15,065 nt of DNA. Origin: a virus (taxonomy: Duplodnaviria > Heunggongvirae > Uroviricota > Caudoviricetes). How positions within the stretch are numbered: position 1 is the stretch's first letter; every line of letters starts with the position of its first letter. Location of the stretch: the IMG/VR virus record IMGVR_UViG_2534682325_000026; one strand, given 5' to 3'. A program made the position numbers. Below are positions 1 to 6,000 of this stretch, piece after piece.

Positions 1-3000
1 AAGAAATAGGGCTTCCACCTGGGAAGCCCTTTCTTTTTATAGTTCGGCTGTATGTAGGGTACAGCACGATGAATCTGTTAGAGGCGCAATAGTGACAGAT
101 TTGATTATCAATTCCTATTTTGTTCTAAGGATAAAACCTTAGGTTGTGATCATCCGCACAATCCCTTAGTAACGCCAGCGGTCATAACGCTGATATTTCG
201 GCACTTTTGGTGCTTTAATCGCCTTAATAACCCACACCACCGCAATCGCCAGGAGTAACCACGGCAGCAACTTAATCATCAATGCCAGCATACCGCCGAG
301 GAACATAATGGCCGTCGCCACAACCAGCGCGGCGATAATGCCCAGCAACGAAACGCCGGTGACCATCAACATGACAAAAAAGCCAATCACAAAAAGTAGT
401 TCCAGCATGATGCTCTCCCAAATATGAAATCTCTTGCAGGCATTACAAGAATCATGCCAAAAATAATCTATTGATTTAACAGCAAAACGCCCCGCGACGG
501 TGCGCAGGGCGTGGTGAATTTGACTACTTTTTGGTGAAAAGTTAACGCTTATCCGCCACCAGTTTGAGCGCGTGTTCCAGCACGTTAATGTCTGCACCCG
601 CTTTATGGGCATTTTCACTTAAATAACGCCGCCACTGCCGCGCGCCAGGAATACCCTGGAACAAGCCCAACATATGCCGGGTAATATGGCCAAGATACGT
701 CCCCTGGCTGAGTTCACGCTCAATGTACGGATACATGGCGCGCACTACCGCCACCGGATCGGCATCGGTATCCGAGGAACCAAAGATCTCTCGGTCTACC
801 GCCGCCAGAATACCCGGATTCTGATACGCTTCGCGCCCGACCATCACGCCATCCATATGTTGCAAATGCGCTTTAGCCTCTTCCAGCGACTTGATACCAC
901 CGTTAATCGACATCGTCAGATGCGGAAAGTCACGCTTCAGTTGATACACACGCGGATAATCGAGCGGCGGGATTTCACGGTTTTCTTTCGGGCTTAACCC
1001 CGAAAGCCAGGCTTTACGTGCGTGGATGATGAACATCTCACACTCGCCTTTGCCGGAAACGGTGTTGATGAAATCGCAGAGAAATTCATAGCTGTCCTGG
1101 TCATCGATGCCAATACGCGTTTTCACCGTCACCGGAATCGACACCACATCGCGCATCGCTTTCACGCAGTCGGCAACCAGCTGCGCATTACCCATCAGAC
1201 ACGCACCAAACATGCCGTTCTGCACCCGGTCAGACGGGCAGCCGACATTCAGGTTGATCTCATCATATCCACGCGCTTCTGCCAGCTTCGCACACTGCGC
1301 CAGCGCCGCCGGATCGCTACCGCCGAGTTGCAACGCTACCGGATGTTCTTCTTCACTGTACGCCAGGTAATCACCTTTACCGTGAATAATCGCCCCTGTA
1401 GTCACCATTTCGGTATACAGCAACGTATTGCGGGAAAGCAGACGCAAGAAATAGCGGCAATGTCTGTCCGTCCAGTCGAGCATTGGTGCAACGCTAAACC
1501 GAGAATTCCAGTAAACACCAGTTTTTTCAGGCATCACGCTGGTTTGATTAATTTTTTGTGCTTCATGATTATCGTGCATTTTTGAACATTTCAGGCTATT
1601 TTTCTCGCGTTAGGTTCCCGCACAGGTTCCCACGTTTTATGGGAACCCGAAATAACGAGGTCGTGTAATGGCGTACTATAACATAGAGAAACGACTAAAA
1701 TCCGATGGCACACCACGCTATCGCTGTAATGTGATTATCAAAGAAAAAGGTGTTATCACTTACAGGGAAAGCAAAACATTCCCTAAACATGCTCATGCCA
1801 AAACATGGGGCACACAGAAAGTGATGGAATTAGATCTATATGGCATTCCATCATCAAATGCAGTTGACGGACTTACAGTCCGTGACTTACTACACAAATA
1901 TTTAAATGACCCAAATGCCGGAGGTAAAGCAGGCCGTACTAAAAGATATGTGCTGGAACTGCTTATGGATAGTGACATATCCGCGATCAAACTATCTGAA
2001 CTGACAGAAAATGACGTAATTGAACATTGCAGGCTAAGAAACAACGCTGGTGCAGGCCCAGCAACAGTCAGCCACGATGTTAGTTATCTTGGCAGTGTTC
2101 TGGATGCGGCAAAACCTGTATACGGAATCAATTACACATCAAACCCGGCGAAAAGCGCTCGTCCATATCTACTTAAACTCGGTTTGATTGGTAAATCAAA
2201 CCGTCGTAATCGTAGACCAGCATCTGATGAACTTGACATGCTCATTGAAGGCCTTCAACAACGATCTACTCATAAATGCTCAAAAATTCCGTTCGTTGAT
2301 ATCCTCAAATTTTCTGTGTGGTCCTGTATGCGAATCGGAGAAGTATGCCGGTTACGATGGGAAGATCTCGACCAAGAACAAAAATCTATACTAGTAAGAG
2401 ATAGGAAAGATCCACGTAAAAAGGAAGGTAACCATATGAAAGTTGCCTTGCTTGGGGAAGCCTGGGATATCGTCCAGCGACAACCAAAAAAATCAGAATT
2501 CATTTTTCCATATAACAGCACTTCTGTTACCGCAGGATTTCAGAGGGTAAGAAGCAAATTAGGTATTAAAGATCTGCGATATCATGATTTGCGTAGAGAA
2601 GGGGCAAGTCGCTTATTTGAGGCTGGTTTTAGTATTGAGGAAGTCGCTCAAGTTACAGGGCATCGTTCATTAAACGTGCTATGGCAGGTATATACCGAAC
2701 TGTATCCGAAATCTTTACATAATCGTTTTGAAGAACTCCAAAAGAGCAGAAACAAGACCTCTTGACACTGTTTATTTATACAGATAAAAATAACACTGTA
2801 TACAAACACAGTATAGAGGGATTTTTATGCGTATTGAAATCTGCATAGCCAAAGAGAAAATGACTAAAATGCCAAACGGTGCTGTGGATGCGTTAAAGGA
2901 AGAATTAACTCGGCGCATCAGTAAGCGTTATGACGATGTAGAAGTGATCGTAAAAGCCACCAGCAATGATGGGCTTTCTGTTACACGCACTGCAGATAAG

Positions 3001-6000
3001 GATTCTGCAAAAACATTTGTTCAGGAGACTCTGAAAGATACCTGGGAATCTTCTGACGAGTGGTTTGTTCACTAATAAACACGTAAATCGGTAACGGCTG
3101 GAAATCATTCAATACTAGCACTATCGAAAGTTCACCAGCCAACCGCAGTACGTTCTTGCATACGAGGTGCCGCGTTTTACATGTCGTACCGAGAATTAAT
3201 TTCATTTTACGAAAAGTTAACCCGCCATTGCTATCTTAATTTTTTAAAACGAAGTTACCTCTGTCAAGGTCAAAAGCACAATTATCTCTTCCTACAATCA
3301 TTGAAACTGCGATTGACTCCCTGCTCAAAGGATGAGCCGCCCTTGTTTTAACAAGATGTATTAATGCCATTTTATCATACAACATACAAACATTTGAATT
3401 CATTGAATTCCTCATAAATACCCCATCTTCTGGTTCACATAATGTAACAGGGCATGTTCGTAAGCTCTCTGGCACTTGCAATTGTGCATGCTCCACATTA
3501 AATGCACATACTTCAATTTTATCTAACAACTCCTCTAACTGGTAGTTAGAAAGCAAATCCATATTTTCGAGCATCTCAATTTCACGCAGTACTGTAACTT
3601 CACGGCTTGTCAAACTACCATGATTAAGTGTACGTTCAATATGTTCTATATATTGAAGGCCAATCTGGATATTATCATTCGATAAACCATCCTGGTTAAG
3701 ACTTCCCATAAAATATCCATTTACCTGCATAGGTCGTATTGACACCATCAACTCACCCAGTCTTATTTGAGCTTCTCCACGAATAGTCTGATTACGTATC
3801 TCAGACAGGGTTTCTTGAGGAATGTCAGACAAAAAACTAACCCCAGATAAAATATAAGGCGTTAAATCTACAGGCATTCCTCTCCCTCCATTTTAATAAC
3901 TTAATTTTGCTTTAGTAAAAAACAAAAGCACATAAAACTATATTTATATCATTAATTATCACTTACAACAAAAAGCTTCTCTTTTTGTATCAAAGTGACA
4001 TTCGTCTTTTCTCATAATCATTGATTCTGTTATAGGTTCTCGACTCAGAGGATGAGCTCCACCAGTTTCAACAAGTTGCACTAACGCGTCCTTATCATAT
4101 AGAGAGCATATCTCAGCACCTTGTGAGTTTCTCATGAACACTCCATTCTCAGGTTTGTCCAGCGTTATCGGGCATGTCAAAAATGACTCCGGGCAAGAAA
4201 AGTGATTAGAATCCGTTCCAAATACACAAGAATTTATTTTTTCCATTAATATTTTATTACCTGTTTTATTTTCTCTGTGTTCTGCCATGACACTCTGAAA
4301 ATAGTTATTAACACTACTTAAAAAATCGACACCTCCATTTAATTGCCTTTCCAGAGCCACAGCCCTTCTATCCATTCGATGCTCACGCCCCAATAGCCTA
4401 TCCAGTAAGCCTCCTCTCACCGGTTCAACTGAAAATCCATCCAGTAGTTGGACATAGTGAACAGAATATTGGCCACTACCAATGGATATTCTTATTCCAC
4501 TTTCAAGTCTGGCAGCATCCTGCAAAGACTGTACTCCTGCAGGAGATAATTGAGATATACTTGGGATACTTAAGGTGGTAACAGGCATAAAAACCTCATT
4601 CAGTAATTCATATCAGTTTGCAGGATGTTTCATTAAATAAAATAAAGGGTAATGTTCATTTCAATTACCCTTTATAACGAAGTTTCCTCTGGTATCGTCA
4701 TAAATGCATTCTTCATGTTTTACAATTATTGATGCCGTTATTGGTTCCCGGGTCAGTGGGTGGGGTAAGTCTTCACCAGTCAAACGAGAAAATGCAGCGG
4801 CATCAAATAAAGTACATACATCTGAACCATCTGAATTCTTCACAAAAACACCTTTTTCAGGCTGCTCCAGTGTAATTGGACATTGAAGCGCATCACCAGG
4901 ACATTGAAGTTTTTCAATATCGACAGTAAAGGCACACTCCGATATTTTTTCCTGCAAAGAGTTTCGCCCTCCCATTCCAGGGAGCGCACTTAATATCCTG
5001 TTTCTGAGCACATTAACTCCATCATTAAAAGCAATATTCAATAATTCTGCATAAACCCGTCCCTGCCCTTCACTTTCTGCTAAAAAACGGCCTGTATCTG
5101 GCATATAAGAAACTCTAACCCTCTCCCCTCCCAGGAGAAATCCACCAATCTGCCCCTCCATTACCTGCTGACGCAGCTCCATCATCTCATTCACGAATGA
5201 AGCCGATGACACATATGATATTAATCCAGGCATTACCATGCTCCTTCATACGGATAAATATTCCCTCAAGTCTTCATTAACAAACATCCACCGGACATGA
5301 CAACAAAAACCGGAGCCGGACTCCGGTTTTGTGAAGCTGTCGGGTTACTTCATCCCGCCAATATTTTCCCACGTCCCGTCAGCACGCAGGATTTGCAGCG
5401 GTCTTACCACACACTGTATCTGCTTTTTATCCGCATCCAGTATCACCACCTGCGTGATTACCCTGACCTGCTCCGGGATAATGCCATTCTCATCTGACTC
5501 CAGGATGTCTGCCGGCCCCAGTCGCAGTTGTACTGTAAGCGACTGCCCGTGTTCACAGTCATCATGCTTTCCGCAACCGCACAGACGCTGCATAATTTTT
5601 TTTAATATGTTCATGTCATTCTCCTGTTCTGCCTGTATCACTGCCCACTTCATCCAGCCCCTTAACATCCTGCCACGGCCCGTCACCAAACCTGACCTGC
5701 AAATGCTGAAAAAAAACCTGAACCCGTGTGGCATCTTTGGGGGCAAGAAAGGTCAGTCCGGTGATGAGTGCGCCATCTGTATCCGGGAACCAGCCATTGC
5801 TGTTTGTCTCAATAATGTTTCCCGGCCCCAGACGAAAACGGATTTGTGTCTCCCCCGGGTCGCCCTTCGGTCCCTGAGGTCCGGTTGCCCCCACCGGGCC
5901 AGTCGCACCTGTTTCTCCTTTCGGTCCCTGTGGGCCTGCCGGGCCTGCCGCACCGGTATCTCCCTTTGGACCCTGTGGACCTGCATTTCCCGTCAGACCG

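Follow-up and report, generated by a model that had tools for sequence, protein, structure and literature searches.

A two-operator, predicted LexA-controlled DinI-family gene cassette in a degraded dusA prophage of Escherichia coli O157:H7

Can a decayed prophage of Escherichia coli still hold a gene that the SOS response of its host would switch on? The question is raised by a stretch of 15,065 bases filed as a virus of the class Caudoviricetes (IMG/VR record IMGVR_UViG_2534682325_000026), the whole of which is called the window below, and in which a previous inspection of the sequence alone (the sequence-only reading) had proposed two tandem LexA boxes upstream of a DinI-like gene, dinI. 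The region from 2762 to about 3081 is very probably a self-contained "moron" of lambdoid coliphages, made up of a sigma-70 promoter, two LexA operators and a LexA-repressed, damage-induced gene of the DinI family. The features of this region and of its 3′ flank are as follows (positions in the window).

2762-2767, plus strand: −35 hexamer TTGACA, located by promoter scan; left border of the mobile cassette.
2768-2783, no strand assigned: predicted LexA operator 1 (box 1), CTGTTTATTTATACAG, read as CTGT-TTATTTAT-ACAG; the corresponding 20-mer is CACTGTTTATTTATACAGAT at 2766-2785.
2786-2791, plus strand: −10 hexamer AAAAAT, located by promoter scan.
2796-2811, no strand assigned: predicted LexA operator 2 (box 2), CTGTATACAAACACAG, read as CTGT-ATACAAAC-ACAG; the corresponding 20-mer is CACTGTATACAAACACAGTA at 2794-2813.
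2816-2820, plus strand: Shine-Dalgarno sequence GAGGG, 6 nt ahead of the ATG at 2827, read from the sequence.
2827-3075, plus strand: DinI-family gene (stop codon 3073-3075) coding for 82 amino acids; RefSeq WP_001217541.1, "DinI-like family protein".
3082-3178, plus strand: lambdoid intergenic element forming the 3′ untranslated region (3′UTR), conserved in alignments and ending in a hairpin.
About 3143-3153 and 3164-3174: arms of the hairpin in the 3′UTR element, followed by TTTT; in the window a mismatched chimera.

The two CTGT-N8-ACAG boxes were found in the sequence at all the coordinates that had been proposed for them. On both strands of the window the motif CTGTN8ACAG occurred twice, as compared with 0.14 matches expected, both occurrences being the boxes upstream of dinI, and two matches were reached in 1 of 200 shuffled versions of the window. 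The gap between the boxes is 12 bp and their centre-to-centre spacing 28 bp. Both match the core exactly and agree with the 20-mer consensus (TACTGTATATATATACAGTA, with an AT-rich centre) at 15 and 16 of the 20 positions. The matrix scoring that the sequence-only reading had suggested for both boxes was performed on the 20-mers: counts from 32 LexA operators of E. coli were symmetrised into a matrix, and the heterology index was calculated by the formula of Lewis and Berg-von Hippel. The scores obtained, 6.74 for box 1 and 6.30 for box 2, fall in the middle of the range of the 32 known operators (2.1-12.3), among which box 1 would rank 16th and box 2 12th best, near lexA, uvrA and yebG. The boxes were by far the two best-scoring sites of the window, and none of 300 random 15-kb sequences held a site scoring as well. 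In a 35-kb chromosomal control searched at a score of 10 or less, the known lexA and uvrA/ssb operators alone were returned. These results support the prediction of both boxes as sites of LexA-operator quality.

A third LexA-like 20-mer, AACTGAAAATCCATCCAGTA, is located at 4427-4446 with a score of 8.76, a value that real operators also reach; a random sequence of 15 kb would be expected to hold about 0.017 sites of this quality. The middle one of three nleG open reading frames (ORFs) of the window (3959-4588, minus strand) contains it, around codons 48-54, and an adjoining promoter was not evident.

The conservation of the promoter region was determined on a set of 26 distinct upstream sequences. 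In box 2 none of the eight arm columns varied, as against four of eight in the centre; in box 1 the corresponding values were two of eight and three of eight. The variant arms of box 1 were CTGG in place of CTGT in one lineage (a form also used by real operators) and ACAA in place of ACAG in phage BP-4795. Variation was seen in one of six columns of the −10, and the −35 was kept as TTGACA or TTGATA among the relatives. Elsewhere the variable columns amounted to 4/6 in the linkers, 10/15 in the 5′UTR and 7/7 upstream of the −35, and the pairwise diversity at third codon positions of dinI was 0.10. Such conservation of the arms and of the −10 is the footprint that working LexA operators and a working promoter would be expected to leave.

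The assignment of the gene product to the DinI family, made earlier from inspection, was borne out by a match to Pfam DinI (PF06183) over profile positions 1-63 of 63 with 67.2 bits (cut-off 24.2) and an E-value of 1.6e-18, by a match to PHROG 189 ("RecA filament binding protein DinI") at 9.5e-31, and by a sequence match to PDB 1ghh at 2e-12. The protein is 45% identical with E. coli DinI from end to end, the acidic C-terminal helix included; the C-terminal segment retains five acidic residues, and the helix ...TWES(A/S)D(D/E)WF is common to both proteins. A single-sequence AlphaFold2 model, with a predicted local distance difference test (pLDDT) value of 75, showed the order strand-helix-helix-strand-strand-helix, and its significant matches in the PDB were limited to DinI entries 1ghh and 7ywa, with template-modelling (TM) scores of 0.63-0.67; 7ywa is DinI bound to the RecA filament. 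The ratio of nonsynonymous to synonymous substitutions (dN/dS) relative to the window allele was 0.01-0.06, with dS up to 0.5, among 35 distinct alleles, apart from the three E. coli-type alleles nearest to it, each only three substitutions away. Since dN/dS is this low, the protein is strongly constrained by purifying selection, a value that holds for the family and not for the window copy alone. A protein of 100% amino-acid identity was found in other elements (loci L006-L008). The gene is thus a genuine, selectively constrained DinI homologue.

The cassette (about 320 bp: promoter, two operators and dinI) was detected in 1,776 of 5,426 complete E. coli genomes (33%), with up to 6 copies each, and the segment from the −35 to just beyond the stop codon in 110 phage records. 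The carriers were converting phages for Shiga toxin (Stx) types Stx1a, Stx2a, Stx2c and Stx2d, phages YYZ-2008, BP-4795, P-EibC and CP-1639, and the viable phage mEp460; the latter has the same int-dinI order, and its depositors annotated the promoter and not the LexA boxes. When the upstream contexts of 80 IMG/VR loci and of GenBank phages were compared, at least four unrelated sequences were found (the 3′ end of an integrase gene, a terminator-like GC hairpin, and two attachment-site-proximal regions with ATGCCCCA repeats), and in every one of them homology began at the −35 element. Tandem ATGCCCCAT / TGCCCCA motifs were observed between the attR repeat and the dinI promoter in YYZ-2008-, BP-4795- and P-EibC-type phages (L004 2085-2130, L003, L087); they may be integrase arm-binding sites.

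At the 3′ side, the 3082-3178 element is present in HK97 directly after sib (L094 1501-1600) and in lambda between ea31 and ea47 (L093 1501-1600), in both cases without dinI. It is therefore a general lambdoid junction or terminator element outside the cassette proper, which extends over about 2762-3081 and is inserted upstream of this pre-existing terminator-like junction. From 3082 onward the sequence is more conserved than the synonymous sites of dinI (diversity 0.02-0.03), and the element may serve as a terminator or as a recombination linker at the end of the leftward operon. The traits of a moron seen here are the predicted promoter of its own, the hairpin at the 3′ side in relatives, the diversity of upstream contexts, and the occurrence of the flanking element without dinI in HK97 and lambda.

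The promoter scan gave TTGACA and AAAAAT separated by an 18-nt spacer, a near-consensus combination with 10 of 12 matches, and the TGA stop codon of the upstream integrase gene (2763-2765) lies inside the −35 hexamer. The sequence-only reading had the two boxes overlapping a TTGACA promoter. Both do lie on the promoter; the −35 itself, however, is abutted by the 16-mer of box 1, which fills the spacer, and the sole overlap with it comes from the outer bases of the 20-mer (2766-2785). Box 2, which starts 4 nt past the −10, would cover the transcription start, predicted at about 2798. Since one box occupies the −35/−10 spacer and the other lies past the −10, two LexA dimers bound there would leave no part of the core promoter accessible.

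From this arrangement LexA would be expected to bind the cassette promoter and the SOS response to induce it. In an undamaged cell, one LexA dimer would sit in the promoter spacer and a second on the transcription start, and RNA polymerase would be excluded. Upon DNA damage RecA would be activated, LexA would cleave itself, and both operators would be vacated. The derepressed gene would be translated from a short leader of about 30 nt, and the 82-amino-acid protein would dock its acidic C-terminal helix on RecA filaments, as E. coli DinI does, altering the co-protease output of RecA, by which LexA, UmuD and CI-type repressors are cleaved. E. coli DinI inhibits or modulates these RecA co-protease functions (work cited in PMC3121763 and PMC8456039). 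Binding to RecA by the phage protein, and the direction in which it would shift the SOS response or induction, are presumed by analogy with E. coli DinI. The tight repression that had been attributed to the double operator is likewise what its layout would suggest.

Several points weigh against this interpretation or limit it. The operators behind the matrix are those of the literature, and only four of them (lexA-1, lexA-2, uvrA/ssb and dinI) were confirmed base for base in strain EDL933. Neither binding nor expression data were found in the literature on this gene and on the E. coli cassette. The spacing of the operators is not fixed at 28 bp, being 29 or 24 bp in some relatives; since it varies in this way, cooperative binding is not implied, and a strictly phased cooperative pair is argued against. 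Box 1 of BP-4795 is degenerate (CTGG...ACAA), so that at least one lineage can do without the second operator. Finally, deletion of the dinI homologues of the Gifsy prophages had no significant effect on induction (PMC3121763).

The supplements of a ciprofloxacin transcriptome of enterohaemorrhagic E. coli contained no entry for a prophage DinI, and a preprint on dinI loss was discarded as expression evidence, since it concerns the chromosomal gene.

The double operator is a feature of the E. coli lambdoid cassette with a spacing that is not fixed, since the homologue of Klebsiella phage P18-100 and chromosomal dinI have a single good box each, at the position of box 2. In phage LMessi (L085 1501-1800) the two-box promoter recurs with a box spacing of 24 bp and drives an unannotated 78-amino-acid MsgA-like ORF of the DinI family (PHROG 189, 1.6e-21). 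The GenBank record of LMessi annotates a hypothetical ORF on the strand opposite to this MsgA-like ORF.

With 100% identity the window matches the chromosome of E. coli O157:H7 strain ECP19-598, as well as several further O157:H7 genomes. Around the cassette it is organized as follows.

Left end, in RefSeq order: pspG, dusA, a tyrosine integrase gene (1668-2765, plus strand), the DinI-like gene (2827-3075, plus strand) and three NleG genes (3236-5239, minus strand).
Rightward of the NleG block: tail-fibre, Lom and tail-tip remnants, then fragmentary early genes split by IS1203, then a dusA 5′ fragment, then host zur, dinF and lexA.
1476-1582 and 13644-13750: direct repeat of the 5′ end of dusA, 107 nt, 85% identical, representing attL and attR of a prophage remnant of about 12.2 kb.

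An identical 27-nt core is found within the dusA repeat (1476-1502 and 13644-13670), and the arrangement is that described for dusA-specific integrases (PMC4482086). In EDL933 the dusA site is empty and the element absent, and at least 80% of the window was found in 203 of the 5,426 complete E. coli genomes. In view of the dusA repeat, the empty site in EDL933 and this limited presence, the element is a lambdoid prophage of about 12 kb in dusA, lineage-specific, heavily degraded and related to phage mEp460. Its RefSeq annotation includes no genes for a repressor, for replication or for lysis, and those for head and tail are either absent or reduced to fragments. Its identification as Sakai prophage Sp17 was ruled out, the gene set of Sp17 (ECs3485-3488) being different and the dusA site of EDL933 empty. 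The IS1203 insertion (9059-10272) is polymorphic, as most of the otherwise identical genomes are without it and cover only 91% of the window; the IS1203 ALIL pseudoknot was the sole match of the window in Rfam at the gathering threshold. Host dinF and lexA are close to the element, 1.2-3 kb past the right end of the window (source genome L001 19266-21065), probably by coincidence of the position of dusA.

Such a state of the prophage leads to the alternative that the cassette is an inert relic, intact merely because the remnant is young, and that the gene contributes nothing in this strain. The neighbouring phage genes are mostly fragments or pseudogenes, IS1203 has inserted in the element, the element is confined to its lineage, and the hairpin downstream of dinI is damaged. 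Against these stand the intact ORF, ribosome-binding site, promoter and both operators, identical to alleles elsewhere, and the very strong purifying selection, although the latter was measured on the family rather than on this copy. We regard an inert relic as unlikely, and the cassette as an SOS-regulated moron is the interpretation kept.

In agreement with what had been noted from the sequence, dinI is convergent with the three minus-strand NleG genes (3236-5239), from which it is separated by 160 nt. In the relatives the hairpin of the 3′UTR element has an energy of −17 to −24 kcal/mol and is often followed by a T-run, and its arms covary among the variants. In the window and in YYZ-2008, which also has nleG downstream, the arms come from different variants, are mismatched, and give −10 kcal/mol. 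A scan of 2600-3300, including 3076-3235, found no intrinsic terminator; the minimum free energy fold of 3060-3240 was not exceptional (z = −1.7), and a permissive Rfam search of 2700-3300 gave chance-level matches only. A dinI-specific structured RNA or small RNA in the 3′UTR was considered and rejected, since the changes in the first hairpin predicted by RNAalifold were one-sided and pair-breaking and the element is shared by lambda and HK97, which lack dinI. RefSeq places a "capsid protein" pseudogene fragment there (3086-3205, minus strand), which has no PHROG match, overlaps the conserved non-coding element and is probably spurious.

Read-through into the antisense strand of nleG may thus be possible in this lineage, and the transcription itself could be the relevant output: SOS transcripts passing the weakened hairpin would run antisense into nleG, or into the tail-fibre genes in intact phages, and nleG expression would fall after damage. 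The missing intrinsic terminator, the short convergent gap and the mismatched hairpin in both elements with nleG downstream are consistent with it. The argument is, however, purely structural, and the residual hairpin with its TTTT, or Rho, may still terminate transcription. Moreover, the protein is under strong selection and must therefore be of importance, and a good hairpin is kept in most relatives, so that read-through has not been conserved along with the cassette. An output of this kind is considered quite improbable in comparison with the expression of a DinI-family protein.

A third alternative is a switch of the Gifsy type, in which the LexA promoter would mainly express a downstream antirepressor that inactivates a non-cleavable phage repressor. 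Such a role was experimentally established for the LexA-box/dinI locus of Gifsy-1, -2 and -3, and in Tum of phage 186 an antirepressor is fused with a DinI-like half (PMC3121763). On the plus strand 3′ of dinI, up to nleG, no conserved ORF of at least 20 amino acids was found. The two ORFs present, of 27 and 56 amino acids, are not conserved, start on the far side of the conserved hairpin and extend as far as nleG or into it; in the relatives the stop codon of dinI is followed by about 70 nt of non-coding lambdoid sequence and then by the hairpin. A Gifsy-like antirepressor was excluded as a conserved frame by a 1-nt indel and a missing start codon, and the mEp460 record has no annotation between dinI and the tail-fibre gene. 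Since no conserved ORF follows dinI, the cassette is not a dinI-antirepressor operon of the Gifsy type, and there is very little to recommend this alternative.

It is hardly credible, lastly, that the palindromes are chance products of an AT-rich promoter, in which partial palindromes are common, or operators of a phage repressor, as matches of this number and score, 12 bp apart, are far from random expectation, conservation falls exactly on the CTGT and ACAG arms, which LexA contacts, chromosomal dinI and the Klebsiella phage homologue have a LexA box at the position of box 2, and the cassette is shared by phages of differing early or immunity regions (Stx1, Stx2, mEp460, P-EibC and BP-4795 types).

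The cassette, with its predicted LexA control, has to be placed in a prophage that is itself dead. The sequence-only reading had linked the gene to the SOS response as the signal that would induce a prophage; a link with induction of its own element is not applicable to a dead remnant, and for that reason any effect on induction would be exerted only in trans, on the host and on co-resident prophages. Tuning of the SOS response or of induction by a phage DinI is a conventional speculation (e.g., PMC8456039): the authors of work on Stx phages already noted the dinI gene and speculated that it limits induction (PMC8456039), and in a comparative study a prophage DinI-like gene was linked to the evolution of quinolone resistance (PMC10575684). 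If the cassette is expressed as predicted, a defective prophage still supplies a RecA modulator to the DNA-damage response of its host. The same cassette on many Stx-converting phages would mean that its copy number and operator design could affect the antibiotic induction of Shiga-toxin phages and SOS mutagenicity, as already speculated in the literature. A more elaborate proposal, doubtful at present, is that the several LexA-gated DinI-like copies of a genome (up to 6) jointly form a dosage-dependent modulator of activated RecA (RecA*) acting in trans, by which the threshold or timing of induction of co-resident Stx phages and of SOS mutagenesis would be set. With its paired operators the cassette would then be switched on later or more sharply than host dinI, which has a single operator, and the damaged hairpin of this lineage could possibly add antisense nleG transcription.

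LexA-controlled dinI homologues of phages are already known (Gifsy, PhiKO2, OS31), and the cassette of the window is very probably another such case. No description of, or experiment on, the two-operator promoter of the E. coli cassette was found in the literature; what is added here is the anatomy of the cassette (−35, operator, −10, operator and borders), evidence of selection on both operators and on the protein, and its distinction from a Gifsy-type antirepressor switch.

The closest experimental parallel is that of Gifsy-1, -2 and -3 (Lemire et al. 2011, PMC3121763), where a prophage dinI homologue has its own promoter and a LexA box a few nt before the start codon. In the Gifsy-2 lysogen the LexA box in front of the gene was required for mitomycin-C-dependent induction and a tagged protein accumulated on mitomycin C (PMC3121763), and the Gifsy dinI genes were induced 5- to 23-fold by nalidixic acid (PMC8072944); damage induction, established there, is predicted here. 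The Gifsy locus differs in having one box, in being located 1.3 kb downstream of the replication genes, and in being the first gene of a dinI-antirepressor-irsA operon with the antirepressor as key product, whereas the cassette of the window has two boxes, lies at the integrase/tail-fibre end of the prophage and has no conserved gene downstream.

For PhiKO2 and Serratia phage OS31, DinI-like genes preceded by a LexA box are reported to stand opposite the tail-fibre genes (PMC7556043). The cassette resembles these and P18-100 in the position of a DinI-like gene beyond the tail-fibre genes, in opposite orientation and with a LexA box ahead. The DinI-like genes of those phages have a single LexA box each, OS31 has in addition a translationally coupled second gene, and the P18-100 protein is far more diverged from that of the window than the E. 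coli alleles are (dN 0.215). In P18-100 a near-consensus LexA box (TGCTGTATTTATATACAGTA, L086 945-964, score 2.16) was observed directly upstream of a small minus-strand ORF (642-926) convergent with its dinI; this ORF is a candidate for a LexA-controlled antirepressor.

Chromosomal dinI of E. coli, an SOS gene, is of the same family and length and also has a LexA box just upstream of the ribosome-binding site. Its single good operator (ACCTGTATAAATAACCAGTA) lies 19 nt ahead of the ATG, and an intrinsic terminator follows its stop codon immediately; in the phage cassette, by contrast, there are two good operators, and the 3′ region is borrowed from lambdoid sequence. As in the lexA promoter, more than one LexA operator is found in one promoter, with scores of 7.2 and 7.1 for the lexA boxes and of 6.7 and 6.3 here; the centre-to-centre distance is 21 bp in lexA, and 28 bp and variable among relatives in the cassette. 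Three LexA boxes are present in recN, and two overlapping ones in colicin genes. Tum of coliphage 186, with the split genes of Fels-2 and PSP3, is likewise a LexA-repressed phage gene with a DinI-like domain (PMC3121763), the repression being predicted in our case. Tum, however, is a 146-amino-acid antirepressor fused to the DinI-like domain and triggers induction, whereas the product of the window cassette is a bare DinI domain of 82 amino acids.

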